A DNA stretch of 64,000 nucleotides from Candidatus Binatia bacterium (GTDB lineage Bacteria; Desulfobacterota; Binatia; UBA12015): the NCBI GenBank assembly GCA_019749875.1, contig JAIEPK010000091.1, positions 14,398-78,397 of the forward strand, in the 5' to 3' direction. A model generated the notes under the pieces. The model saw only the letters and a list, made by a program, of their open reading frames with translations, was not told the origin of the DNA and made no database searches. Below, piece by piece: positions 2,401 through 62,000 of this stretch; within the stretch, counting starts at the first letter, position 1; each line of letters starts with the position of its first letter. The position numbers and the translations under genes are program-made.

Positions 2401-2472
2401 GGTCCCATCGTCTAGCGGTTAGGACACCGGCCTCTCACGTCGGGAACAGGGGTTCGATTCCCCTTGGGACCA
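2401..2472 (+). tRNA. tRNA-Glu (anticodon CTC)
   Basis: Acceptor GGTCCCA/TGGGACC, anticodon stem CCGGC/GTCGG with loop CTCTCAC, T-arm AGGGG-TTCGATT-CCCCT. Close to the canonical Glu tRNA. Lies directly downstream of gltX. Confidence 0.8.
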
Positions 2473-8969: not shown

Positions 8970-9017
8970 GGTCGCTCCTGCATAGCGCCGCACCGCCAAG
9001 TCCCCAAGCGCACGCGC

Positions 9018-10469: not shown

Positions 10470-10535
10470 CGGGGTCTCGGGCTAGCAGCGCGCTCGGGCG
10501 TACCACAAGGTCGCACCGACCCGAGGCGATCCCTG

Positions 10536-10880
10536 TCAATGCGTCAGACGGGCGCCTCCCAGCGCGTCGAAGTTGACGACGGCATCGCCCTCGCCGTCGA
10601 CGACCGAAACGATGCCCTGCGGCACGGCATGCTGCCAGGTGACCGCCCACTCTTCCGCCGCCGCGCGCCGCTGCTCGGCGGGTACGTCCCGCCAGCGCTC
10701 GCCGACCTGCACCAGCAGCAGACGCGGTAGGCCATCGAGCCGGTGCACGTCCACGATCCCGTACGCCTCGCGCAGCGCCGGAGCGCGCAGCTGCGCCACC
10801 ACCTCGTCGGCCGACACCGTGTGCGCACGCGCCGCCGTCCCGAGCACGAGCAGCCCCGTGCCGAGAACGACGGCGCGCAC
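10536..10880 (-). CDS. Small hypothetical protein with an N-terminal hydrophobic signal-like segment
   Basis: C-terminal in-frame part of table ORF 10536..12278. The rest of that ORF is antisense to the large gene. GTG start inferred at 10880 (VRAVVLGTGLLVLGTAARA...). Confidence 0.3.
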   Translation of the reverse strand: MRAVVLGTGLLVLGTAARAHTVSADEVVAQLRAPALREAYGIVDVHRLDGLPRLLLVQVGERWRDVPAEQRRAAAEEWAVTWQHAVPQGIVSVVDGEGDAVVNFDALGGARLTH

Positions 10881-10912
10881 CAGGCGTGCGATCCGTCGTC
10901 GGCCGTGCGCCG

Positions 10913-13900: not shown

Positions 13901-14242
13901 GATCTGCGTCAGGTGGTCGTTGTTCTGACCGTTGTTGCCGAGGTCGAGGACCGAGCAGCCCGAGAGCGCGAACTCGCTGACCTTGGGCGGTGCGGCCGGT
14001 CCGAGCAGCGGCACGAGATCGTCCTGCGGCCCGACGTCGTCGACGATCGCCTGGACCACGCCGTTCGAGACGTACCAGTCGTCGATGCCGCCATCCGCGT
14101 CGGTGCCCGCGAACAGGACCGAGGCCGCGTTCCCGGCGGTCACCCGCGTCGCGATCGGACTCGCCGTCGCGGGCGCGCTCGCAACGAGCAGCAACGAAGC
14201 CGACGCGACGATCGCGTGGCACGAAGAGCGCAGGTTTCGCAC
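10913..14242 (-). CDS. Large secreted protein (1109 aa) with a PHP/CehA-McbA-like metal-dependent hydrolase domain
   Basis: Signal peptide MRNLRSSCHAIVASASLLLVASAPATA. Internal GDFHIHSARSLDSTAP...VMVSTDHDY PHP-like motifs. Long beta-rich Gly/Thr/Val regions. Confidence 0.65.
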   Translation of the reverse strand: MRNLRSSCHAIVASASLLLVASAPATASPIATRVTAGNAASVLFAGTDADGGIDDWYVSNGVVQAIVDDVGPQDDLVPLLGPAAPPKVSEFALSGCSVLDLGNNGQNNDHLTQIFTVGGLSTSNFIVYSGVSASSTPTSATITCTGNLLGFDQGATPVPPSDLVVVTEYTAANADPYLTVTTTVTNNHPTNPASGLGGFLDVSLWTQRAQVPFSPVAGKGFKHAVLDFSNIAAALELPPFAAAPGLAGPGDGIIDPANNLVAGENAYGILGDEASIDQDGAGPNPPVVAAVNSLFGVSSNLLTAFGNSPLGTLQPGGVLTYKRRIYVGSKNDVAAVANPMITEIAARRGFATGTISGEVDAADATDVAASVIATRTGGAALPVFGPGTPVTQFRTSATGAFSGIVLPVGTYSLEVRSPERDPVTVTGVVVNAAANTAVTVPELSALATLDLKVLETVAGPDPAMPAKITIKGVAPTVDPRFKSDVIAIGDPTVGPDVDLRMETFGGGPAQANWVFLASGSGTVQLRPGKYEIYASRGPEYSLRRKIVNVRAQRTRKINFRLRRSVDTAGFVSGDFHIHSARSLDSTAPLQDRVAGFAAEGVEVMVSTDHDYQVDYAPIIANLNLGSRITSMVGNEVTGSVPNPPAFPDSTGHINAWPLTVQANARRDGAIEDEFVAPNWIFKRLRDQGAQVLQYNHVRAGVSGITSIGFFNNFGYDPSLPLAASPNDMLLDDDVTGPGTSGVSNPDGLRNIDFDVMEILNGTEIPAYIAVRRDWLSLLNQIDPPTVPFIGGTGTSDSHRVTLESAGYARTYVGGAGDDPATLDPTTFNANVKAANMMATTGPFIRFSVLDTIGASAGLGGTLVPASGTVRLRIEVQAANWIPVDQVRVIANGFTTLTFDATTSPKVGAPPASPFSQALGKITRFDAEIPVNLAVDTYFIVEAGAKLSPLPTPDALIDKIVPGMIPLGFTNPIFVDLAGDGFDSPGLPVMATATLLHDELPAFARLERADQTWLASLRGWLSSTLAALTLPREASAHGSDNVLADGTVVTGKELAEKVQRDKNTSTGDYFPLYRFSIPADAADAALRQQLPPEEVKQLEADRAKAAGAAH

Positions 14243-14366
14243 GGTTTCCCTCCCGACCTGCCCTGTGGGCGTTGTGGATCGGGGCGGAACCTATAAGCGC
14301 AGCTGCGCGCCGTGCAACCGAAAATTCATCGCGCGATCGTCCACGCGCGATCCGGCAGACCGGCGG

Positions 14367-26658: not shown

Positions 26659-26777
26659 ATCTACGCGAAAATCTTCGGGGACCGCTTGCGGACGCTCGAA
26701 CGTCAACAGTAAGCGTACCCGTCACAGCTTGTGCGGGGGTGGGCGAATTCTCAAGTCGCTGTCCCACCAGGACGGAG

Positions 26778-27014
26778 ATGCAGGTGGAAATCCTGCCCCC
26801 CGCTCTAGACCGGTCAGGGGTGGACATGGGGGCGGTCTCGTTCGAGCGGTTGTTCGGTGACATCGGGAGGGGTGTCGACGCTGCCCTGCGCCCGCCCGCC
26901 GCGAAGCAACACGACTTCGCGAAGATCGCCGCGACGCTGAAGCGCTGCCGAAAGTGCGGCGCGGTGCGCTTCGCTGCCGACACGGCGCAGGACGCATGCA
27001 CGGAGGGGCGATGA
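26778..27014 (+). CDS. Small hypothetical protein with CRKC motif (78 aa)
   Basis: GGACGGAG RBS then ATG at 26778, after a 120-nt intergenic gap. Stop overlaps the next ATG (ATGA). Confidence 0.35.
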   Translation: MQVEILPPALDRSGVDMGAVSFERLFGDIGRGVDAALRPPAAKQHDFAKIAATLKRCRKCGAVRFAADTAQDACTEGR

Positions 27015-34972: not shown

Positions 34973-37900
34973 GTGCACCTCATCGCGAGCAACCTCGCGA
35001 AGGCGCCGCTCGAGGTCTACCGCGGGAAGACCAAGCTCGAGAAGCACCCACTCGTGGACCTGCTGAAGCGGCCGAACAAGGCGATGCCGCGGCAGCGCTT
35101 CATCCACACGATCGCCACCCACGCGCTGCTCAACCCGAACGGCTACGTCTACATCGAGACGCGACATGGCGACGACCCGCGCAAGGGGCAGCCGGTCAAC
35201 CTGATCCCCCTGCCGCCAACGCGCGTCCGCGCGATCCGCCCGTCGACGAACCTCTACGACCTGGTCGGCTGGCGCTTCACCGGGGCGCAGGCGGTCGACC
35301 TGATTCCCGACGTCGTCGCACGCATCGAGGTCGCCCCGGACCCGGATGACCCCTACGCCGGCCTGCCGCCGCTCACGGCCGCGCGGCTGGCGGTCGAGAC
35401 CGACATCTACGCGGGCGAGCTCAACAAGGCGATCATCAAGAACGACGGTCGGCCCGCCGGCATCCTCCGCGTCACGGGCGACGAGGACCTGACGGACGAA
35501 GAGGTCGAGGAGATCCGTGCGCGCTGGAAAGAGGCGCACGGCAACCCGAACCTCGCGGGTGACGTCGCGGTCCTCATGGGCCGCATCGAGTGGCAGCAGA
35601 CGACCATCCCGCTGCGCGACATGCAGTTCATCGCCGGGCGGAAGTGGAACCTCGGCGAGACGGCGCGCGCGTTCAACGTGCCGCCCGTCTTCCTCGGCGA
35701 GTACGAGGCGTCGGGTCTCGCCGACGCCGGCATGCGCTTCTACTGGCGCATGCTCTACCAGACCGTCATCCAGCCGTTCAGCGAGCACATCCAGGGCGTG
35801 CTCACCGAGTCCCTGTGCCCTCGCTACGAGGACGACCTCTCGATCGTCTTCAACTGGGACAACGTCGAGGCGCTGCGCGACGACATGGTCGCGAAGATCG
35901 AGATGGCCAAGGGCCTCAAGGAGCTCGGCTACACGCCGAACGAGATCGCCGAGATCTGCGACCTACCGCCGCAGGACCAGCCGCGCGGCGACGTCGCCTG
36001 GGTGCCGGCCGGAATGGTCCCGGCCGAGATCGCGATCGAGCAGGCCGAGCTGCCTGACGACCCGCTCCCGACCGGCCCCGGCGGCTTGACGCCGCTGCCG
36101 CCTGCGCCGGGTGAGGAGCCCGAGCTCGTGCTCGAGCCGATCCCCGATGCGCCCGTCAAGATTTCGCGGGCGAAGATGACGCGTGCTCGCATCTGGCAGC
36201 GCCACCTGAAGGTCACGAACCCCTTCGAGAAGCGCGTCCTCAGCAGGCTCCGCGGCAACCTACAGAAGCAGCGCGCGCGCGTGCTCGACGCGATGGAGAC
36301 GAAGGCGAAGGGCCTGCCGCTGGGCCTCTCGATTGCTGGCCCCGCAGAACTGGCGCGAGCACTCGACCCGGACTGCCCAGTGTCCGATACGGCCGGAGAG
36401 CCGCTCACGCTCGGAGCGAGGCTCTACCGGGCGGCGCAGGTCGCCATCCGCGAGGCGAAGCGCGGCGAGCACCGGCTCGAGACCATGGCTCGCGAGCTGA
36501 TGAACGTGCGCGTGATGCTGCGCGACCACGGGCCGGGTGCGGTGCTGCGCGAGCTCGATGCGCTGCGGCGGCTGGTCGTCATGGCGCGCGCCGCGGACGA
36601 CGCGGCCGACGAGTTCGACGCGGACGCCTACGCGCGCTCGATCGAGCTCCTGCTGCGCCAGGCGTTCCGCGCGGGCGGCACCGACGCGGGTGAGCAGCTG
36701 CTCGACCTGAGCATCATCAACGACAACGCCGTCAAGGAGTACGCGAAGGAGCTGCCGAAGCTCGCAGAGACGTACTTCGACCACCGCCTCGGAGAGCTGG
36801 TGCAGATCGGCGAGCGCGTGAAGGAGCGGCTCCGGGACACGATCCTGGAGGGCCTGTCCCTCGGCGACACACTCGATCAGCTCATGGACCGCGTCCGCGA
36901 CACGTTCGACGCGTCGGCGTCCCGAGCGCGGACGGTGGCGAGGACCGAGTCCCACACCGCCGTGAACAGCGGCAAGTTCGAGACCTACAAGACGCAGAAC
37001 GCGCAGGGCGAGAACGAGTGGGTGACGGCGAAAGACGCGCACGTCCGCCGGTCGCACCAGATCGACGGCGAGCGTCGGCGCACGGGCGAGAAGTTCCCGA
37101 ACGGCTGCCGGTACCCGGGCGACCGTGCGGCGCCCGCGCGCGAGGTCTGCAACTGCTTCCTGCCTGGGACACAGATCAGCGGAGCGATCGTTGCGGCCCT
37201 ACGCGCCAGCTATTCTGGGCCAGCCGTCGAGATCGTAACCCGGAATGGCCATCGGCTGTGCGTCACCGCTCAGCACCCCGTACTCGGGGCGGAGGGGCCG
37301 GTCGCCGCTGCGAGACTTCGCGTAGGCGACCACCTTCTGGCCTACGGCACGAACATCGACGTGGCGTCCGCGAACGAGGAAGACGGATGCGCCAGCGTCG
37401 AGGATGTTTTCGATGCGATGGGGGGACATGAATCCGTTCTTCAAGCCTCCGCGGTGGATTTCCACGGCGACGGCCGCTTCGTCGAGCAGAAGGTCGACGT
37501 ACGCTCCCGCTACCATCGACTGCTGCGTGACGACGAGACCCTGGTCGCGAACGAACGTGGCGAGCTCGTTCTCGTAACGGCCGATTCGCCCCGTGGCGGC
37601 GCGGTTGGCGGCGGCGACCTGACGACGCCTCTGCTCGACGTCCATGGTGCTCCACTTCGCGCGCTCCGCGTCGGACCGGCCGCGCTGCTTGATGCCCGCC
37701 TTCCGCAGCCTGAGCGTGACGACGTGTCGCGCAACTCCGAACGAGTCCGCGAGCGACTTGACGCTCTCGCCGGAGGAGAATCGCCGAACGATCTCGGTGT
37801 CATCGAGGTGTCGACGACGGATACAGGCCTCGACGCCGGCAGCGGCCAGCTTTCTCCAGAGTGTCGAGCAGCCTACGCCAGCTTCGCGAGCGAGCTCCGG

Positions 37901-38086
37901 GACCGGAGTTCCGGCGCGGTAGCGCTCGATGAGGTGGTCGAGGTTCGGCACTTCCACTTTTCGGGACACGTCTACGACCTCCAATCGACAACCGGTTACG
38001 TAGCGGCCGGCGGAATCATCAGCAAGCAGTGCCGCTGCACCATCATCCCGGTCTCGGCCATCGACTACCAGCTCGAGGCCGCGTGA
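34973..38086 (+). CDS. Portal protein (HK97-like) fused to a MuF/SPP1-gp7 head-morphogenesis domain that is interrupted by an intein
   Basis: N-terminal portal signature ...VYACVHLIASNLAKAPLEVYRG. MuF region ...ARTESHTAVNSGKFETYK...PNGCRYPGD...VCN|[intein]|CRCTII. True start probably lies upstream of the first canonical start codon at 34973. Confidence 0.75.
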   Translation: MHLIASNLAKAPLEVYRGKTKLEKHPLVDLLKRPNKAMPRQRFIHTIATHALLNPNGYVYIETRHGDDPRKGQPVNLIPLPPTRVRAIRPSTNLYDLVGWRFTGAQAVDLIPDVVARIEVAPDPDDPYAGLPPLTAARLAVETDIYAGELNKAIIKNDGRPAGILRVTGDEDLTDEEVEEIRARWKEAHGNPNLAGDVAVLMGRIEWQQTTIPLRDMQFIAGRKWNLGETARAFNVPPVFLGEYEASGLADAGMRFYWRMLYQTVIQPFSEHIQGVLTESLCPRYEDDLSIVFNWDNVEALRDDMVAKIEMAKGLKELGYTPNEIAEICDLPPQDQPRGDVAWVPAGMVPAEIAIEQAELPDDPLPTGPGGLTPLPPAPGEEPELVLEPIPDAPVKISRAKMTRARIWQRHLKVTNPFEKRVLSRLRGNLQKQRARVLDAMETKAKGLPLGLSIAGPAELARALDPDCPVSDTAGEPLTLGARLYRAAQVAIREAKRGEHRLETMARELMNVRVMLRDHGPGAVLRELDALRRLVVMARAADDAADEFDADAYARSIELLLRQAFRAGGTDAGEQLLDLSIINDNAVKEYAKELPKLAETYFDHRLGELVQIGERVKERLRDTILEGLSLGDTLDQLMDRVRDTFDASASRARTVARTESHTAVNSGKFETYKTQNAQGENEWVTAKDAHVRRSHQIDGERRRTGEKFPNGCRYPGDRAAPAREVCNCFLPGTQISGAIVAALRASYSGPAVEIVTRNGHRLCVTAQHPVLGAEGPVAAARLRVGDHLLAYGTNIDVASANEEDGCASVEDVFDAMGGHESVLQASAVDFHGDGRFVEQKVDVRSRYHRLLRDDETLVANERGELVLVTADSPRGGAVGGGDLTTPLLDVHGAPLRALRVGPAALLDARLPQPERDDVSRNSERVRERLDALAGGESPNDLGVIEVSTTDTGLDAGSGQLSPECRAAYASFASELRDRSSGAVALDEVVEVRHFHFSGHVYDLQSTTGYVAAGGIISKQCRCTIIPVSAIDYQLEAA
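37154..38029 (+). mobile_element. Intein (Hint domain, 292 aa) inserted in the conserved NCRC motif of the MuF domain
   Basis: Block A CFLPGTQISGAI, block B GHRLCVTAQHPVL, GD at RLRVGDHLL, C-terminal block HVYDLQSTTGYVAAGGIISKQ, followed by +1 Cys. Penultimate residues KQ rather than HN. GC3 about 74% versus about 88-93% for neighbouring phage genes. Confidence 0.7.
37199..37969 (-). CDS. Antisense ORF within the intein: two HTH motifs plus a Vsr/DUF559-like PD-(D/E)xK endonuclease domain (candidate homing endonuclease)
   Basis: GGAGG RBS 7 nt before GTG (37969). HTHs at IERYRAGTPVPELAREAGVGCSTLWRKL and RRFSSGESVKSLADSFGVARHVVTLRL. YVDLLLDEAAVAVEIHRGG...HRIENILDAGASVFLVRGRHV resembles the DUF559/Vsr signature. 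In-phase antisense to the plus frame, which is junk-like in the middle. Confidence 0.5.
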   Translation of the reverse strand: MSRKVEVPNLDHLIERYRAGTPVPELAREAGVGCSTLWRKLAAAGVEACIRRRHLDDTEIVRRFSSGESVKSLADSFGVARHVVTLRLRKAGIKQRGRSDAERAKWSTMDVEQRRRQVAAANRAATGRIGRYENELATFVRDQGLVVTQQSMVAGAYVDLLLDEAAVAVEIHRGGLKNGFMSPHRIENILDAGASVFLVRGRHVDVRAVGQKVVAYAKSRSGDRPLRPEYGVLSGDAQPMAIPGYDLDGWPRIAGA

Positions 38087-38185: not shown

Positions 38186-40015
38186 ATGCTGCCGGCGCAC
38201 TACGGCATCGACAAGAACAGCGGGAACCTGCAGCGCGACCTGGGCGACCAGCGACGCGTCATGCTCATCCGCGGCGAGCCGCAGCGCGTGCGGACCCTCA
38301 ACGCGAAGGAGCGCGTGCTGCGCTTCATCGTTTGCACCGAGGGCGTCAAGCGCGACGGCCACAAGGTCCGCATCGGCGACCTGAACAAGGGCGACACGTA
38401 CGGCTTCGACTTCACGAACTTCGCGAAGAACCCCGTCGCGCTCTGGACCCACGACTACGGCGCCGAGGGTCGTCCGCCGCTCATGCCCGTCGGCGCGTGG
38501 CGCAACTGGGTGGTCGAGGTCGAGAACGGCAAGCGCCAGCTCGTTGCCGACCTGAAGTTCGCGTCGCACCAGATGGCGTCGGACCTCTACCAGCTCTACC
38601 TGCCCGAGGAGGAGGGCGGCGACGGCTGCGGGCATGCGTGTTCGATCGGCTGGGTGCCGCTCACCTGGGAGGAGATGCGCTCGGCAAACGGCGCGTACAT
38701 CGGGCACGACTTCCTCACCGGCGAGATGCTCGAGATCAGCCCGTGCGGCATCCCGGCAGACCCGGACGCGACGCTCAAGAAGCTCTCGCGGGCGATGAAC
38801 GCGGGGCGCGTCTCGAGAGAGACCGTCGAGCGCCTCGCGGACTGGGGCATGTTGCCGAAGAAGCTGCGCGGCTACGCCTACGTGCTGGATCATCGCTCCG
38901 CGGACGCGGCACACACGCGAGCCATGACCAAGGGCGACCGCGTCAAGGTGAAGGCGGGTAAAGAGCACGACGCCATGACCAAGGGTGCCGCCGGCGAAGT
39001 CGTCGAGGTGAGCACGTCTGCGCTCGGGATCAAGTTCGACGGCATGGACGGTGTCCACCGGTGGTACGTCGAGTCGGAACTCGAGGCTGCTGACGACAAC
39101 CCCGAGCAGATCGAGGGCGACGAGATGTCGCGCGCGATCGCGGCACTGCTCGATGACGAGTCGGCACACGGCAACACGGGCGACAAGTCGACGATCGACA
39201 ACACGGAGAGTCGCGACGTCGCGACCGAGGGCGGCGGCAAGCAGTCCGAGGCGTCCCCCACCGCCGAGGTCAGGCACGGCATCTTCTGGACCGAGGTCTG
39301 CCGTACGATCGCATTCTCGTTCGGCACCGTCGCTCGGGGGCAGATGTCCGACGCGATGGACCAAGCGAAGGATCGGGCCTGCGCCCTGCACTCGCAGCTC
39401 TACGGCGTGCTGGACCAGCTCTCGTGGGAGATCACGACGCTCTTCGTGAAGGGCCGCGACATGATCGGGATCGAGGCCGCGCCGAGCTACCCGACGGATG
39501 ACGACTGGGCGCGACGCTGCGTCAAGCGCGGTGCGGCCCTGGCCGCGTCCCTGTCCGACACGTTCGCCGAGATGGAGGACATCATGGCCGGCGAGGCCGG
39601 AGCCGAGGGCGAGCCCGAGACCGCCAGCGCCGATGCGCCGCTCACCCGCGTCGGCAAGAAGCTCGCGAGCAAGACGCCAGAGGGCGAGGACCAGGACGAG
39701 CCCGAGACGCCCGACGAGGAGGACGACGAGGACGAGGACCCCGAGAAGACCCTCGCGCTCGAGCTGGGCGACGTCATGGAGCGTGCCACCGCGAAGATCC
39801 GCGGCGAGCAGCCGGGCGCGCACGGCGATCACAGGGAATGGCTCGACGACGACCGCCTTGCCCGCTTCGCGAAGGCGCTCGGACGCAACGAGAAGTCCAG
39901 CGTCAAGGACGACGAGCCCATCGGCACGCGCGCGGATTTCGCGGACATCCTCCTTTCTATTGATCGCGTCTCGGCCAAGCTCGGTTCAGGCCGATCGGCG
40001 CGCGGCGGCAACTGA
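38186..40015 (+). CDS. Prohead (capsid maturation) protease, HK97 family, fused to an acidic scaffold-like C-terminal region
   Basis: ...RVLRFIVCTEGVKRDGHKVRIGDLN...FAKNPVALWTHDY... protease domain. Long D/E-rich C-terminus. GAAGGGG RBS. Confidence 0.75.
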   Translation: MLPAHYGIDKNSGNLQRDLGDQRRVMLIRGEPQRVRTLNAKERVLRFIVCTEGVKRDGHKVRIGDLNKGDTYGFDFTNFAKNPVALWTHDYGAEGRPPLMPVGAWRNWVVEVENGKRQLVADLKFASHQMASDLYQLYLPEEEGGDGCGHACSIGWVPLTWEEMRSANGAYIGHDFLTGEMLEISPCGIPADPDATLKKLSRAMNAGRVSRETVERLADWGMLPKKLRGYAYVLDHRSADAAHTRAMTKGDRVKVKAGKEHDAMTKGAAGEVVEVSTSALGIKFDGMDGVHRWYVESELEAADDNPEQIEGDEMSRAIAALLDDESAHGNTGDKSTIDNTESRDVATEGGGKQSEASPTAEVRHGIFWTEVCRTIAFSFGTVARGQMSDAMDQAKDRACALHSQLYGVLDQLSWEITTLFVKGRDMIGIEAAPSYPTDDDWARRCVKRGAALAASLSDTFAEMEDIMAGEAGAEGEPETASADAPLTRVGKKLASKTPEGEDQDEPETPDEEDDEDEDPEKTLALELGDVMERATAKIRGEQPGAHGDHREWLDDDRLARFAKALGRNEKSSVKDDEPIGTRADFADILLSIDRVSAKLGSGRSARGGN

Positions 40016-46688: not shown

Positions 46689-46760
46689 GGACGAGGTAGC
46701 GCAGCCTGGGAGCGCACCGGCGCCGAGCCGGAGGTCGCGGGTTCAAATCCCGCCCTCGTC
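46689..46760 (+). tRNA. tRNA-like gene with canonical acceptor, D- and T-arms but an atypical anticodon arm (possibly Arg-CCG)
   Basis: Acceptor GACGAGG/CCTCGTC, D-arm GCGC-AGCCTGGGA-GCGC, T-arm GCGGG-TTCAAAT-CCCGC. Anticodon region CCGG-CGCCGAG-CCGG gives either a 4-bp stem with G at position 33 or a 5-bp stem with a 5-nt loop. Confidence 0.45.
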
Positions 46761-46774
46761 CGTTCTCTGACGGT

Positions 46775-47302: not shown

Positions 47303-47432
47303 TGGGGCCGGACGCCGACGTCGGGTCGGCACGCGGCTGTAGACCGCGCGTCTTCGGACACGGGGGGTTCGACTCCCTCCCGCCCCACTCTTTCCCGCCC
47401 CCCGATCCCAACGAAACCCTCGGGGGTGTCAG

Positions 47433-48290
47433 GTGAAGAAGGTCAAGCGTCTCCTCGCGCGGTCGGTGATCGCGCTCCTGCTCGCGATCGGCGTCCTGCA
47501 GGTCAGCATCCAGCCCGCGCTCGCGCAGAAGGCCGGCCCCGGCGAGCCGTTCCGCTTCCGCGGCGGCCTCGCGTACTTCGGCCCGACCGACTCGGACACG
47601 CTCCGATCGCGCGTCACCGATGCGACCGGCTCCGGTGGGGGTCTGGTGTTCGCGACCGGCCCGACCATCTCGGGGGGCACGTTCTCCAACCCCACCATGA
47701 CCGGCACCGTCACCGTGCCGGATGGCTTCCTCGCGTCCATCGCGAAGTTCGCCTCGGGCATCCTGTCTGGCAACGGCTCGAAGCTCGCGACCGTCACCGG
47801 CGCGCAGACCGCCGGCAAGCAGCTCACCTACGACGCATCGGGAAACGTCATCGTCTCGTCCTACGACGTCGGCGCCGCGGGCACCGGTAAGCAGATCCTG
47901 TCGTTCTCGAGCCAAACCGTCCTTCCCTTCGCGGACTCCGGCTCGACGAACTACCTCGGCCTCGGCGGCAAGGTCGGCGCTTCGGGAGATGAGGTCTGGG
48001 TCCGCGCACCGCTCAGCGGCGGCACCGCGTCGAAGCTCCGCTGTTTCGCGACCGGCTCGACCGGTGGCTCGGGCGCGGTCGTTACGCTCGGGTCCGGTGC
48101 GTGCGGAAGCCCGCTCACCTACCCCGGCAGCGGCCAGGTCACGGTCACCGTCACCTCGACAACGGCTGTCTCCGACACCTCGCAAACCCACTCCGTGACG
48201 GATGGACATTGCGTCGCCCTGAAGGTTGTGTGGACCGACACGACCACCGACCAGGGCCTCAACTGCACCCTCGAGTACGCTCTGAGCTGA
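47433..48290 (+). CDS. Secreted Gly/Ser/Thr-rich protein (Sec signal peptide)
   Basis: GTG with upstream GGGGGTG. Signal MKKVKRLLARSVIALLLAIGVLQVSIQPALAQ. Repetitive G/S/T-rich beta-like sequence. Confidence 0.55.
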   Translation: MKKVKRLLARSVIALLLAIGVLQVSIQPALAQKAGPGEPFRFRGGLAYFGPTDSDTLRSRVTDATGSGGGLVFATGPTISGGTFSNPTMTGTVTVPDGFLASIAKFASGILSGNGSKLATVTGAQTAGKQLTYDASGNVIVSSYDVGAAGTGKQILSFSSQTVLPFADSGSTNYLGLGGKVGASGDEVWVRAPLSGGTASKLRCFATGSTGGSGAVVTLGSGACGSPLTYPGSGQVTVTVTSTTAVSDTSQTHSVTDGHCVALKVVWTDTTTDQGLNCTLEYALS

Positions 48291-48298
48291 GGAGCACC

Positions 48299-51235
48299 AT
48301 GAACCATCGTACCACCCCACGGGCCCTCGCCATCCTGGTTGGCCTGACGGCACTCCTGTCTCTCTCGCCGGAGGCGCACGCGCAGCGCAGTAGCGGCGTC
48401 GCGCGCTTCCGGGGCGGCATGATCTCGTTCGCTTGCGCCGCCGGCAAGCTGCTGGGCGTCAACTCGAGCGGCTATGCCGCATGCCGCCAAGCTGGCAACG
48501 CGCTGGTCGCTGAGGACATCGGGCTCCACTGCGACCAGAGCGCCAATGACACGTCGACGATTCGGTCGGCGATCGAGGGCGGAACCGCCGCGGGCAAGAC
48601 GCTCCGGTTGCCGTCCGGGTGCAAGAGCCTACTGGGCACGCCGGGCGCGGGCGACTCGGTAGCCGACCTGATGACCGACACCGTCATCGAGTGCGAGGAC
48701 CACTCCGCCGGCTTCGTGCTGGCGACCAAGACCTGCTCGTCAGGTAGCGACACGCCGGGCGCAGCATGCACGGCGGACAACCAGTGTCGGAATGGGACGT
48801 GCCAGGGCGACGTGACCGGCGACGCGTTCGCTCCCAGCTCGGGCAGCACGTACACCGTCTTCGGCGCGGCGTCCGGCGCGCAGCGCGTCGCCGTCAAGGG
48901 CTGCTCGATCTGGGCGAACGGCGCCAATGGCATTCCCGCCGCGGTCGGCGGCAACGACAAGCGGTGGGGCTACTGCAACGGCGCGGGCTCGAGCACCGCC
49001 GGACAGGGCTGCTTCTCGGGGTGTAACGTCGCGTCGGGCGTCCTGTACGGCCTGCCCTGCACCAGCGATGCCTCGTGCGGAGCTGGTGCGTGCGTGGACC
49101 TCGCTGGGAGCTGCAAGACGAACGGCGGCACGTGCCTGGGGGCGATTCCGTACGCGACGCCCTGGGGCGCGTCGGGTCGCGGCAAGATCCACCCCATCGA
49201 CTTCTCGGCCGGCTCCAGCGACGCCATCCGGAGCGTCAAGATCTGGGACCACCGCCGAGGAGACTTCTCCGTCAAGTCGGGGAACTCCGGCTCGATCGCC
49301 GACGTCACGAACAATCTCGCGTCGGCCATGGCGACACCGCCGATCGCCAACTTCCCCCACGGGCCCAAGCTCCAGGCGAGCGTCAACTACGGGATCTACG
49401 GCACTTACGGAACCAGCATCGAGCGGTTCGACGTCAGCGGGTGGGATGCGGCGGTCTACGCAGCCGGCCGGAACACGGTCCTGGGGGGCTCGGGCTCCGG
49501 GTATGGCGACCCCGCCGAGTCGACGTGGAACGGCACCGCCGGCATCGAGATCGCCGGCAGCTACGTCCGCTCGTACGGCTTCGTGGGCGGGCCAGGCTTG
49601 CTCAACTGCGTCCGTCCAAAGTTCGGACTGGGATACAACTTCCTCGTCTCGTCGCCCTACTGCGACTCGCACATCGGGGCGAAGTTCATCGCTCAGGATG
49701 CGGGCAACCAGTACGCCGACCTCCGGGGTGCGTGGGGCAGCATCGCGAGCGTGATGAGCCTCGGCGACCAGCGAGGGCGTTGCCCAACCGGAACCCCGCG
49801 CGCCAACAAGCTCTGCATCTTCGGAGCCGGCACCGACGCGACGATCGGGTGCCCCTCGTCGGCGTGCGCGGCGCACAACGACTTCCCGGCCACGGGCGTC
49901 ACCCACCTGGAGGTCGGTGGCACAACCCTTCTCCACACCGATCAGGCGAACGCCGCGCTGATCCGGGCGACCGACAGCAAGCGCTGCGCTGATGGCACCG
50001 GAACCATCGGCGGCCCCTGCACCGCGGACGCCGACTGCGGGACGGGCGGCAAGTGCCGCTTCCTCCGGTACTCCGACGTGTCGATCAAGGCCGAGCTGTA
50101 CGTCGGGGGGACGACGGGCGTCACCGGAGTGGACCTCTCGACGTCGAGCGTCGGCCAGGCGATCGACTCGCCGCTCGTGGGTGGAGGGCCGTCGATCGAG
50201 GTGTGGGACCTCGACCTGAGCTTCGGCAAGCTCGCGGTCGGCGTCAAGTTCCCGACCGCCACTCGCCGGTGCGTCGGTGGGGCGAGCGCCGGCAACACCT
50301 GCTCGGCGCACACCGACTGCACGGGCGGCGGCAGCTGCGAGCTGCCCGTCAAGAACTTCGTGATCCGCGGCAATGCGGGCGCCGTCACCACGCCGCTCCA
50401 GGGCTGGGACTGGGGCTTCGGCGACTACTCCGGCCTGTCCGGGCTGCTCCCGAGCGACGACCAGTGCAAGCCGATCAACTACGTGGCGGGCGAGGCGCTC
50501 ACCCGTGGCCAGGTCGTGTCGGCCTCGTCCTCGACGGACAACGCCGTCGTCAAGACCACCACGGGTAATCCTGAGCGTGCTCTCGGCGTCGCGCTCGGCG
50601 ACACGATCAGCGGCGACACCGTCAAGGTCTGCTCGCTGGGCGTCGCCGCGTGCATCGCGGACGAGGCGATCAGCAACGGCGCGGCGCTCACGCCGTCGAC
50701 CTCGACCTCCGGCCGGGTCAAGACGTGGTCGACGGGGGACGTCATCGTCGGTCGAGCCTTGGACAGTCCCGGCTCCGCGGGAACGGTCTTCGACTGCGCG
50801 ATCGGTCCCGTTCCGCCGACGCAGGGATCGACGTCGGTGTTCCCGAAGTTCGACTCGGACCGCCTAGCCACGAGCCAGGGCTTCACGTCGTCGTGTGCGA
50901 CGACGCAATTGCTCAACGCGAAGACCTACACCGCGACCAGCGGGAAGAAGATCCGGCTCGAATCGTACGTTCCCGTCAATCAGACGACGAGCGCCACCCG
51001 CACCGCAACGATCTACCTGAAGCGCGGCGGCTCGGGCTGCGACTCGGGCTCGCCGACTATCCTCGCGCAGGCCGACACCGCGCTCACGTCGGCGCAGAAC
51101 AAGATCAACGCCTCCCTGTCGTACACCGACACGGGACAGAGCGGCTCCGTCACGTACCGCGTGTGCGCGTGCTCGAACGGCGCGGGAACGCAGGCCGATG
51201 CCGGCTCGGTGCTGAACATCACCGAGACGAACTGA
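48299..51235 (+). CDS. Large secreted Cys-rich repeat protein (978 aa) with four C-x2-D-x2-C-x-x-G-x-C modules
   Basis: GAGGAG RBS then ATG at 48299. Signal MNHRTTPRALAILVGLTALLSLSPEAHA. Modules ACTADNQCRNGTCQG, PCTSDASCGAGACVD, PCTADADCGTGGKCRF, TCSAHTDCTGGGSCEL. Table ORF starts upstream at 48101. Confidence 0.6.
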   Translation: MNHRTTPRALAILVGLTALLSLSPEAHAQRSSGVARFRGGMISFACAAGKLLGVNSSGYAACRQAGNALVAEDIGLHCDQSANDTSTIRSAIEGGTAAGKTLRLPSGCKSLLGTPGAGDSVADLMTDTVIECEDHSAGFVLATKTCSSGSDTPGAACTADNQCRNGTCQGDVTGDAFAPSSGSTYTVFGAASGAQRVAVKGCSIWANGANGIPAAVGGNDKRWGYCNGAGSSTAGQGCFSGCNVASGVLYGLPCTSDASCGAGACVDLAGSCKTNGGTCLGAIPYATPWGASGRGKIHPIDFSAGSSDAIRSVKIWDHRRGDFSVKSGNSGSIADVTNNLASAMATPPIANFPHGPKLQASVNYGIYGTYGTSIERFDVSGWDAAVYAAGRNTVLGGSGSGYGDPAESTWNGTAGIEIAGSYVRSYGFVGGPGLLNCVRPKFGLGYNFLVSSPYCDSHIGAKFIAQDAGNQYADLRGAWGSIASVMSLGDQRGRCPTGTPRANKLCIFGAGTDATIGCPSSACAAHNDFPATGVTHLEVGGTTLLHTDQANAALIRATDSKRCADGTGTIGGPCTADADCGTGGKCRFLRYSDVSIKAELYVGGTTGVTGVDLSTSSVGQAIDSPLVGGGPSIEVWDLDLSFGKLAVGVKFPTATRRCVGGASAGNTCSAHTDCTGGGSCELPVKNFVIRGNAGAVTTPLQGWDWGFGDYSGLSGLLPSDDQCKPINYVAGEALTRGQVVSASSSTDNAVVKTTTGNPERALGVALGDTISGDTVKVCSLGVAACIADEAISNGAALTPSTSTSGRVKTWSTGDVIVGRALDSPGSAGTVFDCAIGPVPPTQGSTSVFPKFDSDRLATSQGFTSSCATTQLLNAKTYTATSGKKIRLESYVPVNQTTSATRTATIYLKRGGSGCDSGSPTILAQADTALTSAQNKINASLSYTDTGQSGSVTYRVCACSNGAGTQADAGSVLNITETN

Positions 51236-55632: not shown

Positions 55633-56048
55633 AGCTGTTTCGGCCGGGCGCGCCGAAGAGCTGCGAGGAGTGCTCCGACCTCCAGGAGCACTCCGACCAG
55701 CCGTGCTGGTTCCAAGACGGCTGCCCCTTCGACGACCTGGCCAACAGCCCGAGGCTCGGAGCAATCCTTCGCTTCGCGACCCGCACCATCGTCCACCAGG
55801 AGCTCCCCACCAGGGACGGCGGCAAGCAGCACCACTACGAGGTCCGACCCGACCTCTTCCAGCTCCGCTGCAAGACGAAGCAGGTCCCGCAGGCCCAGTG
55901 GGACGAGGCGCTCGACTACTGCGAGCTCGTCGCACGCGCCGCCACCGAGGCCCCCGACGTAGCGGCCGCGCCGAAGCACCGACGGCGCGGCGAACTGAAG
56001 AGGGTGACGCTTGGCCGCAGGCGACGAGAAGATCCGCGTAACGATTGA
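55153..56048 (+). CDS. Tail assembly chaperone G-T fusion made by -1 ribosomal frameshift at 55599-55605
   Basis: Frame relationship (G in frame 1, T extension in frame 0) and a canonical slippery site. Conserved siphovirus arrangement. Confidence 0.45.
55599..55605 (+). promoter_or_regulatory. Slippery heptamer G_GGA_AAC for a programmed -1 frameshift producing the G-T fusion chaperone
   Basis: XXXYYYZ heptamer is in the zero frame of the G gene. The -1 frame stays open to 56048 and encodes a Cys-rich extension (…CEECSDLQEHSDQPCWFQDGCPF…). Confidence 0.5.
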
Positions 56049-59000
56049 GGTCGACGACTCGGGTCTCCGGGTCTTCGACCAAGCGGGCAAGCTCGTCAAG
56101 CAGTTCGCGACGGAGGCCGGCAAGGCCGGGACCTCCGTCGACGAGCTGGCCGATGCGTTCACCGCTGGTCTCGTCGATGGTCTCGCGAAGGCCTCCGCCG
56201 AGACGGCCAAGCTCGAGGGCCGGCTGAAGGAGGAGCAGCGTCTCCTCGAGGCCGAGATCGAGCTCCGCAAACAGGTCAACGAGGGCGTGCTCTCGGAGAT
56301 CGACGCGCGTGCCCGGCTCGCGAGGGAGCAGGCGAAGGGCAACGAGGGCGTCGCCGACCTGCTCGAGCGCAACTCGCGCCTGAAGTCCGAGCTCGAGGGG
56401 CTCACCAAGGCCGGCAACGACAACACCGGGATGTGGCAGCGCCTGAAGTCCGGGGCGGAGTCCGTCAAGGGCGTGTTCGAGGGCGTCTTCTACGTCGTCG
56501 AGGGCGGCAAGGCCGCTTTCGAGGTTCTGCGCTCCGCGGGGGAGGTTGCATTCGATGGCCTCAACACGGCGGCGCGCACCTTTCGCGAGTCGACCATCAA
56601 CGGCATTGGCACGGAGTACCTCTCCGAGCTGACGGCGCTGGCCGAGGCCTCCGGCCGCGAGATGGACGACGTCCTCGACCTGGTGCGCGACGTCCGCAAG
56701 CGCGTCGGAGAGGCATCGACCGAGCTCGCGCGCGGCAACCTGACGAACACCTTCGTCGACGCGTTCAACCGTCTTGGTGCCGGCCCCGAGATGCTCAAGA
56801 AGTTCGCGACCGACACGGAGGCGGCGGTCGACTTCGTCATCTCGAAGATCGCACAGGCGAAGGACGACCCTCGGATTCAGTTCACGGTCCAGGAGCTGAC
56901 CAACTCGGGCTTCGAGAAGTTCGGCCCGATCGTCGCGGCACTCGGGGAGAAGGGCGTCGCGGAAGCGCGCGAGCAGGTCCGTGCACTCGGGCTTTCGATC
57001 TCGGATGAGACGGCAGCTCTGGCGCAGCGAACGCAGGCCAGCCTTAGTCTGATCGGGCAGGCCTTCGACGGCGTGATCCGTCAGTTGACGGCCGGAGCGG
57101 CGCCCGCACTAGAGGGCGCGTCGTCTCGCCTCGTGGCATTCGCCACCGACCTCGGAATCGCCGACGGACGGCTGCAAGACATCGGCGCCACCATCGGCGC
57201 CGGCGTCGCATCCTCGCTCGACTCGCTGATCGCGCTGGTCGAGCGACTCAGCACCGCCGCGAGCGAGGGGCGCTTCGGCGAGCAGCTCCTGGCGGAGCTG
57301 CAGAAGATCGGTCCTGCGGTCGAGCCGTACGCGCGCGAGGCCGGCGAGAAGATCGGCGAGTTCCTCGCCGAAGGCTTCCGTCGCGGCATCGCCGGCATGT
57401 TCTCGATCGACTGGTCGAAGCTCGCGGACCTGTCGGGCTTCGTCGATCCGATGGAGGCCTATGCCAAGGGCATCTCCGAGCGGGTCTCTGGCGCGTTCGA
57501 CGTCGACATCGCGCCGCTGACGTCGTCGGTAAACGCGGCTTCGAGCGCCATCACGCAGTTCAACACCGCCACCGCATCGGCCGCGGCGCAGAACGTCGAG
57601 GCGAACAACGCCTTCTCGTCGACGCGTGAGGTGCTCGGCCAGATGGCCGACGGCTCGCTGATCCTCGGCAAGAGCCTCATCCAGTCCGGCGAGGCGGCGA
57701 CGAAGGCGGGAGGCGGCTACCGAACGACGGGTGGTGCGGCCGGCCAGGCGGCGCAGGACCTCGCCAACTTCAACAAGGAGCTCGCGAAGCAGAGCGCCTC
57801 GCTCTCGGCCACGCAGGCGATCTACCAGCAGGCCGCTCGAGGCACGATCTCGCTCGCGCAGGCGGATCAGCAAGCCGCGGTCGCGAGTGCGACACTCGAA
57901 AAGGGCATCACCGACGAGAAGGCCAAGCTCGCCGCGCTCACGCTCGAGCGCCAGAAGGCCGCAGTCGAGACCGCGAAGGCCGCTGCTGCCGCTGCGGATC
58001 AGGTGCAGGCCGAACAGGCGAAGCTCGACGTCATGCGCCAGGTCGTTGCGGCAGGCGGCGACACCGAGGACGTCGCGCGCGCGGTGGCGCTCGCCGACAT
58101 CGAGCGCGCTGCCGCGGCGCAGCTCGCGAAGGGCGCGAACGAGGAAGACGTCGCTCTCCTCAAGCAGAAGCAGATCGCGCTCCTCGACACCGTCAAGGCG
58201 CAGCAGGAGCTGAACCAGGTCGCCACCGGCAAAGAGGAGCTGACGAAGCTCCGCGAGCAGCTCGCGATCACGCAGCAGCGCGCCGCCGGCACGCTAAGCG
58301 CGGTCGAGGCGGAGCGCCGGCTCGCGATCGCCGCCGCGGGCACGACCGAGGAGCTGCGCAAGCAGGCCGGCGAGAAGTTCGACCTCGTCAAGCAGATCGA
58401 GGACACCGAGAAGGGCTACGTCCATCTCGGCGACACCATCAAGGGCGCGTTCACGGACGTGTTCGATGCGCTCGTCGCCGGCACGCTCGACCTACAGGAC
58501 TCGCTGAAGAGCCTCGGGCTCGCCATCGGCAAGGACTTCTTCAATGCGATGCTCGAGTCGAAGTTCAAGGACTTCGACCCGACCGTCAAGGCCAATTTTC
58601 TTGAGCTGGGAGACTACGGCAAGGGCATCTTCGGGTCCCTGTTCGACGGCGTCGCGCGCATCTTCGGCGGCGGCGGTGGCGGTGGCTTCGTCGGGCCGCT
58701 GCTCGAGAACGGGACGATCGGCACCGGCGGCGGCGTGCCGGGACTCCTGGGCTTCGGCGGCGGCGGCGGTCTCGGATTGCTTGCGAACCTCGCGCTCAAC
58801 AGCGGCGGGTTCTTCGCCAACAGCAATCCGGGTGTGAGTCTCGGTCTGAGCGGCCTGAGTCTCGCGAATAGCGGACTCAGCCTCGCGACGGGCAGCGGCA
58901 TCATCGGCTCGCTCTTCGGCACCGGTGCTGCGTCTTCGACGATCGGGTCGCTGATTGGCGACACGGGCTCGGGCCTCGTCACCTCGCTCTTCGGCGACAC

Positions 59001-62000
59001 GGGCTCGAGCATCCTCGCCACGTCGCTCGGCACAGCCGGCGCCGTTGGTGGCGGCGTCGTCGGCGGCCTCGGTGGGGCCTACGCCGGCTGGCAGCTCGGC
59101 CAGGGCGGCCAGTCCGGCGCGCAGATCGCCGCATCGGCCGCGTCCGTCATCGCCGGTGGTGCGGCCGTCTACGCGTCGCTCACGGCGCTCGTCGCCGCGT
59201 CGACGTCCGCTCTGAATGCGATCCCCGTCATCGGCACCATCATCTACGCGATCATCGTCGCCCTGGCTGCGATCGCGGGCGCGATCACCGACATCACGCC
59301 CACCGCCGGCACGCTCCGCCGCCGCGCCGCGGAAGCCGCGCTCGATCAGACCGCGACCTTCGCCGCGCTGCAGAAGGACATGGGGGACCTGACGCGCAAG
59401 AAGTTCGCGCTCAACACGAACCCCGATCTCCCGCAGCAGCGCGAGTACATCGGCGACCAGGGCGTGACGGACCTCACCGGGTTCGCCACCGTGTTCGCAC
59501 AGACCGCCTTCGGGGGCTCGTTCGCGGCCGGCAAGGACCACGTCCAGGGCATCGCTCAGCAGTGGACGAACATCCTCACCGAGTTCTTCGCTCGGCTCGA
59601 CGGCTCCAGCGAGGAGGTCTCGGCGACGATCCGCGAGAATCTCCTCTCGGCCTTCCGCGACCTCGGCATCAACGACGCGACGAAGGCGTTCGAGATGCTC
59701 AACGGCGCCGCCGCGAACTTCAAGCTCAACACGGACACCTTCGACTACTTCCACGAGCAGATCGCCGGCGCCGAGTCCTTGGGCACGGCCGTGCGCGGCG
59801 TAGCCGGCATCTTCGAGCAGGAGCTTCCCCCGGGCGTGCATCTGGCGGCGCTCGCCCTGGAGAGCATGACGCGCGACGGGACGCGCGCGTTCTCCGATCT
59901 TGACTCGGCCGGTCACGACTCGCTCGTTCGCCTCGCCGACGACGCGAAGAGCTTCGATGCGCTCGTCGGGGCGCTCTTCTCCAACGGCTTCGAGATCGAC
60001 ACCGAAGACTTCGACCGCCGGATGAAGGACATCACCGCCTCCGCGGGCTTCGTCAGCGAGAACATTGGCGAGCTCTTCTCCGGGGCGTCGGTCGGCGAGG
60101 GGCTCGCGGCCTTCGGCGCCAAGCTGAAGGAGACGATCCTCGGTGCCGTGAGCGAGGCGTCGCTCGGCGACCTCTTCGACAACACCAACATCGCGGCGAG
60201 CTTCGAGCCCGTCTTCGCCGTACTGCGCCAGCTCAACGAGGGCGCCTACAAGAACGACGCTGGCCGCCTCGACTTCGGTGCGTTCGACGCCGACATGGTC
60301 GCGGCGATCGCCGAGGGCAAGGCGACGCTCGCGGACTACCTCCCGGAGATCATCGCGGCGCGCGATGCGATGCAGGAGTTCGAGAAGGCCATCGACGAGG
60401 CCCTGGAGCCGACTCCGGTAGAGGCGTTCTGGCTGGCGATGGAGGATCGGCTCCGCGCGAACACCGAGGCGGTGGAAGGCTTCGCCGCGAGCCTCTACGA
60501 CGCCGCGGCCCAAGCCGAGGCACTTCTCCCCGGCAGCGGGCAGGAGGTGGCTCGCGACCAGGCGCGCGCCGCGATCAGCGACGGTGCGCTCGGCGCGGCG
60601 CGCGCCGCCGCGGCGGAGGGCGTCGCCGCTGGCCCCGAGGGCGAGCGCCTTGCCGCACTCCAGACCGAGTTCCAGGCCAAGGTAAAGGCCGCGTTTGAGG
60701 GTGGCATCTCGACCGCCGAGCTCGGTGATCTCGCGAACCTCAAGGCCCGCATGGGCGAGGCCGGTCAAGCACTGGCCGACAAGATGTCGGAGTCCGCGAA
60801 GGTCTTCGACCAGCTCTTTGCGGCCGAGCGCTGGAAGGCCCAGGTCGACGCGGTCACCGATTCGCTCAAGGGCGCGATCGGCGGTGCGGGGCAGGCGTTC
60901 TTTGACGTCCTGAAAAACGGCGGCAGCGCCGAGGAGGCTGCGAAGGCGCTCGGCGACTCGTTCCGCTCGAGCGTCCAGCAGTCCGTCGTGCAGGGTATCA
61001 CCGATGCCGTTGTGCAGGGCGCGGTCATCCAGGGCGCGCTCGCGCCCCTGATCGCTGGCCTGCAGGGCGCCATCCAGGCCACCCTCCCCGGCGGGATCAA
61101 CGCGGCCGAGAGCCAATTCCTATCGGCCATCGTGGGCAAGATCGGCACGGAGACCAATAACGTCATCGGCCAGCTCACGCCGCTCTTCACCCAGCTCGGC
61201 ACGGCCGTCGGCGGGATCTTCGAGAACACCGACAAGACCGTCAAGAACATCGACGAGATCGACCGTCAGACGCGCGACGCCGACTATGGTGTCGACGAGA
61301 TGGCACGCCGCGCTGCGCGGCAGCTCGAGGAAGTCGGGAACGCCGTCCCACCGGCGACGGTGAGCGCCGTCAAGGACAACCTCGAGGCCCTCAAGGACGC
61401 GCTTCCCACCGAGGGTGCGTCGACCGACATCAAGGACGGACTCTCCAGGCTCGCGGGCGCCTTCTCCGACGTGCAGGCCGATACGATCGCCACCGGAGTA
61501 TCCGACCTGAAGGGTGCGCTCGGTGCCGACGGCGGCCTCGTCGCGGCGGCAAGCGAAGCAGGAAATGCGCTGGTGGGAGCGGGGGGCCTCACCGAGACCC
61601 TGGGCACCATCCAGGGAGCGCTCGGAGACCTTGGCGTCGCGGGCGCCGCCGACGATGCGTCCGGCGCGCTCCGCGACCAGCTTCAGGTCGCGACCGAATC
61701 GGCGGCCGATGTCCTGCAAGACCTCTTCTCGGCTCGCGTCGGGGATGCCGCGACCGCAGCGGAGCGCCTCGCGGGGCGTCTCGACGCCATCAAGCTGCCC
61801 GGTGCCGCGAAGGGTGGCACGTTCGGTGGCGGCACGGTCGTCGTGGGCGAGGAAGGCCCGGAGGTGGTGACCGCGCTGGACGGTGGGGGCTTCCACGTCG
61901 AGCCGATCTCTCGCGCGCAGATGAACATGCTGCTCGGCAACGGCATGCCGGGCTTCGCCGACGGCGGCTCGCTCATCCCGATCGGCCGTCGCGGCGGGAA

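Follow-up and report, generated by a model that had tools for sequence, protein, structure and literature searches.

What moves an intein whose own polypeptide holds no nuclease? The question is raised by a locus in a 64,000-nt stretch of DNA from Candidatus Binatia bacterium (GCA_019749875.1, contig JAIEPK010000091.1), here called the window, to whose positions all coordinates refer. An open reading frame (ORF) for a portal-MuF fusion protein of phage type is interrupted there, in frame, by an intein, and the strand opposite the intein carries, nested inside it, a gene for a protein with two helix-turn-helix (HTH) domains and a predicted nuclease core of Vsr/DUF559 fold. A canonical intein carries its nuclease as an in-frame LAGLIDADG or HNH domain, which leaves with the polypeptide that is spliced out. 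Here, the mobile intein is probably two genes on one DNA, with the antisense gene as its homing endonuclease. We also consider it rather likely, if with less assurance, that the locus represents a widespread intein class with antisense homing-endonuclease genes, whose promoter, ribosome-binding site and start codon are provided by the reverse complement of Hint blocks F and G.

The host ORF (34973..38086, plus strand, stop codon included) encodes a precursor of 1037 amino acids (aa) that matches the Pfam models Phage_portal (PF04860; E 4.7e-62) and Phage_Mu_F/SPP1-gp7 (PF04233; E 5e-13), and also TIGR01537 and TIGR01641. Within it, the intein comprises 292 aa (37154..38029, plus strand), from Cys1 (codon 37154-37156, opening CFLPGTQI) to the terminal Gln of ISKQ, and its translation contains all four Hint blocks that the original prediction had read from the sequence. 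The N-terminal Hint lobe (37154..37345, plus strand), better conserved in the sense frame and modelled by AlphaFold with a predicted local distance difference test (pLDDT) score of 70-83 over residues 21-60, holds block A and block B (TAQH); the C-terminal lobe (37925..38029, plus strand), likewise conserved in the sense frame and recognized in relatives by a Hint-C profile, holds blocks F and G (GHVYDLQS...GGIISKQ, within VVEVRHFHFSGHVYDLQS...GGIISKQ). The C-extein (CRCTIIPVSAIDYQLEAA; 38030..38083, plus strand) begins with the +1 Cys (codon 38030-38032), which with Cys1 supplies the expected nucleophiles. The spliced junction would read ...REVCN-CRCTIIPV..., and three intein-less MuF homologues (P0153-P0155, found with the spliced sequence as query) run uninterrupted across it as EEVIQCRC, EEVINCRC and EEVCNCRC; an alignment of exteins, proposed earlier as a check, thus places the boundaries exactly where they had been put, in the N|CRC motif of the MuF domain. 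The proposed comparison with Hint profiles came out less cleanly: the Intein_splicing model (PF14890) matches the whole host protein (E 1.4e-5) and the intein alone (E 1.5e-6), a match that is specific though its 28.5 bits lie under the gathering score of 35.8, because the long linker splits it. Matches of the intein to TIGR01445 and to IF-2 (PRK14845) are weak. Judged by its sequence, the window insertion is a class-1 Hint intein at the N|CRC site of the MuF domain, for which splicing is predicted.

Between the two lobes lies a sense-frame linker of ~193 aa (37346..37924, plus strand), which is read-through of the antisense gene. It has no Pfam match besides Intein_splicing, and AlphaFold, given an alignment of three sequences only, models residues 65-257 at pLDDT <50; the whole sense intein reaches a pLDDT of 40 with the same three sequences, too weak a model to test the Hint fold. 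The earlier description of this linker as free of motifs therefore holds, and extends to the lack of a confident fold, but the antisense gene does not stop at the linker: it covers ~88% of the intein (771 of 876 nt) and reaches into the Hint-coding ends. A conventional in-frame endonuclease domain was considered and rejected, the sense linker being without motif, conservation or fold. The other peculiarity of the polypeptide is its Lys-Gln terminus in place of the C-terminal Asn, usually His-Asn. Among 65 complete inteins compared (54 plus 11) the terminal Gln is found in the window alone, all others ending in Asn, in keeping with the suspicion that this terminus is atypical; it is a known working intein variant, usually slower, with some efficient examples (PMC4031507).

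The antisense gene (37199..37969, minus strand) encodes 256 aa between a GTG start (37969-37967) and a TAG stop (37201-37199), in a frame that is free of stops from 37984 down to that TAG and lies codon-on-codon with the intein, position 1 opposite position 3 and position 2 opposite position 2. The ribosome-binding site and two HTH motifs announced for this frame were all recovered. A Shine-Dalgarno GGAGG (37978..37982, minus strand), reverse complement of the D-L-Q codons in GHVYDLQ, lies 8 nt 5' of the GTG; residues 10-43 (37841..37942) match HTH_7 with 36.9 bits against a cut-off of 23.8; and residues 57-90 (37700..37801) match phrog_7170 and HTH_58 (E 1.6e-4), the latter with 21.9 bits, slightly under its 23.8-bit cut-off. 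From an 80-sequence alignment AlphaFold models the protein at a mean pLDDT of 92.5, with no residue <50, as two three-helix HTH domains (both at pLDDT >90), a helical connector and an alpha/beta core (residues 147-234; 37268..37531). In a Foldseek search this core finds the phage homing endonuclease I-Bth0305I (3r3p) at rank 3 overall, with probability 1.0, a TM score of 0.70 and a root-mean-square deviation of 2.9 A over 100 columns at 13% identity, and also Escherichia coli Vsr (1cw0, 1vsr; probability 0.99-1.0) and the DUF559 protein 3hrl (0.95, TM 0.71). The family profile leads to the same folds and to a multi-HTH protein (3hrl, E 5.8e-6; Cbp1, 3.6e-7; Vsr, 0.01), and relatives match REase_MTES_1575 at E 2e-7 to 4.5e-5, under its 38.2-bit cut-off, and, in a single locus, L005, DUF559, with a score of 20.8 bits that passes the 20.6-bit cut-off.

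Two acidic residues of the core stand out. D159 (codon 37495-37493) is invariant in alignments of 40 and 80 sequences, E170 (codon 37462-37460) is invariant in the former and at least 90% conserved in the latter, and the pair aligns with VDF...VEADGGQH of 3hrl as the strand-1 Asp and the strand-2 (V/I)E; all invariant and near-invariant residues of the family are found in the window's protein. The proposed kinship with the EDxHD family of I-Bth0305I is borne out in fold only, and membership is rejected: the motif is missing, the window reading E170-I-H-R-G and the family consensus after the Glu being variable. Sequence and model together support the view that the antisense ORF encodes a predicted HTH-HTH-Vsr/DUF559-fold nuclease with its own ribosome-binding site.

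Such a gene might be a peculiarity of one genome, but it belongs to a large family. Searched exhaustively with HMMER, 1.84 billion representatives yielded 1990 relatives at E<=1e-3, of which 514 reach E<=1e-10, with lengths mostly of 230-300 aa; a word-indexed protein search with the antisense protein, and a scan of genome contigs with a three-sequence alignment, returned no relative. The ten family members that were looked up come from contigs of ~1-5 kb, under 1.6 kb in eight cases, and none has a name or accession from a curated source. Two were followed to their contigs, and each sits antisense in a MuF intein with a sense ORF that runs off the contig end: gene callers report the antisense ORF only where a contig end truncates the competing sense ORF. 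The nesting itself is constant. A scan of IMG/VR gave 79 loci, 70 of them distinct, with a GC content of 0.40-0.72, and in every one the antisense ORF lies wholly under a longer ORF of the opposite strand in the same codon phase. Both Hint ends are found, by Hint-N and Hint-C profiles made from relatives, at positions matching the window, in 73 of the 79; the remaining six show the N or the C end alone, four of them being cut by a contig end, so that at least one end is present throughout. Junctions in this set read ...N|C[FL]LPGT...[HS]N|CRC. The same nesting is seen in loci L001, L003 and L005-L007, and a scan with a six-sequence alignment added five loci in metagenome-assembled genomes (Gammaproteobacteria, Gemmatimonadaceae, Anaerolineae, Alcaligenaceae and Halothiobacillus).

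Cultured phages carry the arrangement too. The window's antisense protein matches 19 GenBank phage records and the Jerseyvirus version 96, and among the annotated matches listed every one lies under a coding sequence (CDS) named head-morphogenesis, MuF or hypothetical; the covering CDS is on the opposite strand in all seven records opened (1N2-2, BR313c, ES2, vB_StyS-sam, Malisha, vB_VaM_H2 and Snoke). In the eight cultured phages checked the antisense ORF is intact: Idiomarinaceae phage 1N2-2, Cronobacter phage ES2 and Salmonella phage vB_StyS-sam (region GC 0.52 in each), Pseudomonas phage vB_Pae_BR313c (0.62), Vibrio phage vB_VaM_H2 (0.45), Gordonia phage Malisha (0.63), Pantoea phage AH01 and E. 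coli phage Snoke. The Snoke record (MK931441) marks an 'intein-containing capsid morphogenesis protein' and leaves the opposite-strand gene unannotated, and in LC507823 (L097, 1626-2027) a 133-aa hypothetical protein, BBO65996.1, is a fragment of the antisense nuclease gene. Complete E. coli genomes contained no blastn match to the ES2 intein. The antisense gene is thus a large unannotated family, present across phage genomes and metagenome contigs that together number well over a hundred, and its intein occupies one insertion site, MuF N|CRC, in both architectures, the portal-MuF fusion and the separate MuF gene.

Some details of these records deserve mention on their own account. Portal and MuF are fused in an ORF of 1000-1100 aa in the window and in L003, L013, L014, L019, L029, L044 and L051; Jerseyviruses, ES2, 1N2-2 and others have MuF as a gene of its own. 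In L006 (an SRR26786846 contig), which reads HPNCR|CFLPGT...TAN|CAF, the intein apparently sits two residues downstream (NCR|C), with the second Cys of CRC as the +1 residue. Short 'hypothetical protein' CDSs are annotated within the MuF gene of the Salmonella phages LC507823, PV446483 and PV360690, and in four others (NC_073183, MZ560703, OQ507916 and NC_073179) the intein-containing MuF gene is named 'NAD+--asparagine ADP-ribosyltransferase', a name probably carried over from MuF-toxin fusion proteins.

How two genes are kept open on one DNA can be seen from codon usage. TTA, CTA and TCA are the sole sense codons that give stops in the antisense phase, and they make up 2 of 17,288 overlap codons, against 434 of 31,147 (1.4%) elsewhere in the same host ORFs; at 40-52% GC, 2-15 antisense stops would be expected per locus. 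The overlap region so defined partly follows the antisense ORF itself, and a second definition, taken from the sense-strand Hint boundaries, is independent of it: across 54 distinct complete inteins, antisense stops are confined to sense codons up to 24 or to the last ~20 codons, with L052, which has one internal antisense stop, as the one exception, and most of the early stops fall at codon 15, as the antisense gene's own. The overlap is longest in Jerseyviruses and other Guernseyvirinae (L097-L109), where the antisense ORF runs on to intein codon 2, the Leu of CLLGDT, in place of codon 16, so that ~270 of 272 codons are overlapped and the gene covers up to ~99% of the intein.

Conservation changes strand along the intein. 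In the Hint lobes (alignment columns 0-59 and 240-269) BLOSUM scores are higher for the sense frame; across columns 75-239 they favour the antisense frame, whose score is positive against a sense score of ~0. Substitutions in 11 Guernseyvirinae phages with ungapped 272-codon inteins of 78-99.8% nucleotide identity (the UNVERIFIED record MG969409, L110, with frameshifts in both frames, was left out) give the same division. In the Hint N region (codons 0-64, 65 in all) the variable sites at sense positions 1, 2 and 3 number 18, 9 and 28, and 20 sense against 29 antisense aa columns vary; in the Hint C region (codons 235-271, 37 in all) the sites number 6, 2 and 18, with 8 sense against 19 antisense columns variable; and in the centre (codons 65-234, 170 in all) they number 110, 28 and 58, with 113 sense columns variable against 60 antisense. 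Single-nucleotide differences in the centre are synonymous 1780 times in the antisense frame and 417 times in the sense frame, a relation that is reversed in both Hint ends, and three close metagenomic pairs show the identical strand switch of constraint. The sense strand itself dictates part of the antisense 'conservation': block B (T-x-x-H-P-V), reverse-complemented, yields the antisense YG(V/M) that is near-invariant close to the C-terminus, and the sense motif HGDG corresponds in the same way to antisense AVAVE. These comparisons indicate that the Hint ends are under purifying selection for their sense reading, the centre for its antisense reading.

The base composition of the window's intein bears the same mark. 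Third-position GC is 0.72 in the intein on the plus strand, 0.79 in the antisense ORF and 0.94 in the N-extein (whose three codon positions have 0.71, 0.44 and 0.94), roughly the drop that had been pointed out earlier and taken as consistent with separate acquisition of the element. In the centre (37511-37780) the plus frame is inverted, with GC of 0.86-0.94 at position 1 and 0.62-0.68 at position 3, which is the signature of minus-strand coding. Dual coding suffices to explain the lower third-position GC of the intein, and a separate recent acquisition was rejected as its cause.

The signals for expressing the antisense gene appear to be written into the Hint motifs. Counting antisense codons from the intein end, the start is the 21st in the window and in most of the 54 inteins; read in reverse complement, the His codon of GHVYDLQ supplies its ATG or GTG, and D-L-Q supplies yTGGAGGTC, which puts GGAGG 8 nt ahead of the start in most of these inteins. 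Further 5' of the Shine-Dalgarno sequence and start, the antisense of block G reads in many loci (the L013-L091 set; L010, 2399-2428) as a sigma-70-like promoter, the -35 deriving from ...SN and the -10 from the W-I-I-A or I-I codons. L017 has TTGACA-16-TATAAT, a 12/12 match, L068, L037 and L073 match at 11/12, and phage 1N2-2 has TTCACA-18-TGnTATAAT ~55 nt 5' of the start. Against synonymous-codon randomisations the promoter score is 7.94 versus 6.50 (Wilcoxon P = 1.4e-8, too optimistic a value for related loci), and 17 of 54 loci score at 0.05 or below. The Shine-Dalgarno sequence and start codon of the window are intact and canonical. From these signals, the antisense gene is predicted to be translated from its own start.

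The distribution of the element among close relatives is as expected of a homing element, for it is present in some and absent from others. A 350-nt spliced Jerseyvirus junction matches 484 phage records and is contiguous, as an empty site, in 387, among them SE2 (91.7% nucleotide identity in the flanks), SETP3 and E. coli K1G-like phages, and in the listed intein-bearing relatives its two halves match as separate places. As in the known residences of homing endonuclease genes, an element of self-splicing type thus lies at a conserved site that is occupied or empty among close relatives. In L003 (3558-4442; the same DNA as L002) the antisense gene has two in-frame stops and the sense intein frame is open, which by sequence looks like a decayed nuclease gene inside a persisting intein.

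A mechanism can be proposed on these grounds. The class-1 Hint intein at N|CRC would be translated within the portal-MuF precursor and would then splice itself out, its central ~190 residues serving as a tolerated spacer at the usual endonuclease position of the Hint fold. The minus-strand protein would be made from its own signals, probably at low late transcription or in the lysogen, and would cut intein-less MuF alleles, whose recombinational repair would copy in the intein and the nuclease gene together. The element may plausibly have arisen when a free-standing nuclease gene was inserted, inverted, into a mini-intein, and the ends of the gene would later have been extended into Hint-coding sequence. 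At the 1.4% rate of TTA, CTA and TCA given above, ~6% of 200-codon genes would by arithmetic be stop-free in the reverse in-phase frame, and the sense frame stays contiguous because both genes avoid these codons. Expression, cleavage, homing and splicing of the element are all inferred from sequence.

The surroundings of the element place it in a prophage. A terminase-like ORF lies upstream of the portal-MuF ORF and an HK97-type capsid gene downstream, and a gltX-type glutamyl-tRNA synthetase gene (E 5e-94), followed by tRNA-Gln(ctg) and tRNA-Glu(ctc), occupies 861..2472, so that the window is a bacterial chromosome (69% GC) carrying a prophage, with the element in its head module. ARAGORN predicts further tRNAs in or near the phage-like region, tRNA-Gly(acc) at 26733..26805, with an unusual anticodon ACC, tRNA-Arg(ccg) at 46689..46762 and tRNA-Tyr(gta) at 47305..47388. 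A 609-aa ORF between the portal-MuF and capsid genes (38186..40015, plus strand) has no Pfam match; its 580-aa counterpart at the same position in L003 may be a protease-scaffold fusion. Without Pfam match at E<=1e-4 are also a 2536-aa ORF (56011..63621, plus strand) and three ORFs of 900-1136 aa (8028..10730, 10886..14296 and 48101..51235), and some of these Pfam-less ORFs may be shadow ORFs at 69% GC.

Several observations weigh against taking the antisense gene as a homing endonuclease, or against taking the window's copy as an active one. The window's antisense protein has no significant match to any Pfam nuclease model, so that its assignment to the Vsr/DUF559 fold, which the original prediction had made from a motif and which fold search, family profile and relatives uphold, rests on those and not on the protein's own Pfam search. 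The third acidic or Lys residue of the classical PD-(D/E)xK and ExD motifs is not conserved, which makes its catalytic competence uncertain. The depth of the AlphaFold alignments is unmatched between the frames (80 antisense sequences against three sense), and the loci are phylogenetically related, so that pooled P-values are overstated. In the window, a scan found no sigma-70-like promoter, and synonymous randomisations do as well as its block-G antisense; with its terminal Gln and penultimate Lys, and in a prophage, this copy could be splicing slowly or decaying. The first two of these points would fit a gene that is real and selected without being a homing nuclease: a regulator of HTH type or a factor acting against the host, its Vsr-like domain degenerate, an exclusion nuclease directed at competing phages, or a maturase-like helper, in an intein that is immobile or moved otherwise. 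The two HTH domains do score best, and one source labels a family member 'predicted transcriptional regulator'; yet such a gene would hardly call for a single intein insertion site in every locus examined, an invariant D159 and nearly invariant E170 on well-conserved active-site strands, the fold of a proven homing endonuclease, I-Bth0305I, and an element polymorphic among near-identical phages, and we consider it improbable.

It is somewhat unlikely, too, though conceivable, that the window's copy is the relic of a decaying prophage in a family that otherwise functions, its intein splicing poorly or its nuclease gene silent. The singular C-terminal Gln, the missing sigma-70-like promoter and the position beside chromosomal gltX and tRNA genes, hence in a prophage, are what a relic might show, but both reading frames are intact, as are the Shine-Dalgarno sequence and start codon, the family's invariant and near-invariant residues are all in place, Gln-ending inteins do splice, some of them efficiently (PMC4031507), and a sigma-70 consensus may not fit a host of 69% GC. 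Far less credible is an antisense ORF that is a mere by-product of high GC or codon bias, or the dead remnant of an old inverted insertion, opposite a linker that is simply an unstructured loop. Long antisense ORFs in codon-on-codon phase are indeed common at high GC, and the window has many shadow ORFs; however, the ORF remains intact in phages of 40-52% GC in spite of the stops expected there, for which a chance ORF was rejected, its domains are supported by homology in Pfam and by a confident fold, and in the centre it is the antisense and not the sense frame that is under purifying selection. The nesting, seen again at all related loci examined, even at 40% GC, is more than chance, and the two-gene intein with an antisense homing endonuclease is the reading that we prefer.

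Among known systems the closest arrangement is that of the fractured genes, where a free-standing gene for a Vsr-like homing endonuclease lies between the halves of a split intein (Dassa et al., 2009, PMC2677866). The likeness extends to the endonuclease being a separate gene where the canonical endonuclease domain sits, to the Vsr-like fold and to the phage or environmental origin of the DNA, and the text of that paper mentions no antisense arrangement. There, however, the host gene is broken into two ORFs and the intein acts in trans, whereas here one uninterrupted 1037-aa ORF spans the intein, as a single ORF does in all complete related loci; intein and host ORF stay contiguous because the nuclease gene is inverted, codon-on-codon. 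I-Bth0305I, a phage-borne EDxHD homing endonuclease encoded on the sense strand in a group I intron (Taylor et al., 2011, PMC3239194; PDB 3r3p), shares the Vsr-like fold of the nuclease domain, but the antisense family, beyond its low identity and missing EDxHD motif, is nearer to DUF559 and REase_MTES_1575 and begins with one or two HTH domains. Canonical bifunctional inteins resemble the present element in joining Hint and nuclease at a conserved site of an essential gene, with empty sites and decayed nuclease copies, and differ in that here the spliced-out polypeptide is a spacer and the nuclease a protein of the other strand with its own start.

The host protein has been met with before. 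In the Methylococcus capsulatus Bath genome report, the intein in MuF (Mu gp30 / F) of a Mu-like prophage, a member of the same host protein family, is said to lack 'a recognizable endonuclease sequence' and shows weak similarity to archaeal IF-2 inteins, as the window's intein does (Ward et al., 2004, PMC517821). Long antiparallel overlapping genes are also on record, namely pop/ompA (PMC7103648) and olg1 and olg2 in Pseudomonas aeruginosa (PMC8850804), in which an ORF is likewise fully embedded antisense in an annotated gene and routinely dropped by annotation pipelines; those ORFs are described as evolutionarily novel or of recent origin, with support mainly from expression, whereas here both partners have ancient domains, the pair is recurrent and the evidence is comparative. 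MuF inteins (Ward et al., 2004; the Snoke annotation) and the pairing of intein with homing endonuclease are thus already known. The antisense architecture, which had been suspected to be undescribed, appears unprecedented, in that no published account of a gene antisense to an intein was found in the literature covered, most subscription journals lying outside it.

If the proposed reading is true, an intein with an antisense endonuclease gene would here be seen for the first time. It would add a third way of coupling Hint and nuclease to the two already known, as an in-frame domain or in a split, 'fractured' gene, and would account for the description of large MuF inteins as endonuclease-less. 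The pair would be among the clearest long, ancient, two-domain antiparallel overlapping genes in any virus, and for the study of overlapping genes it would offer a replicated natural experiment, with two opposite-strand proteins over ~770 nt and expression signals built from catalytic motifs. For annotation, it means that a family of ~2000 cluster representatives is missing from curated phage records, Snoke included. The cultured E. coli, Salmonella and Cronobacter carriers make the element directly testable, and a new family of site-specific nucleases is possible.

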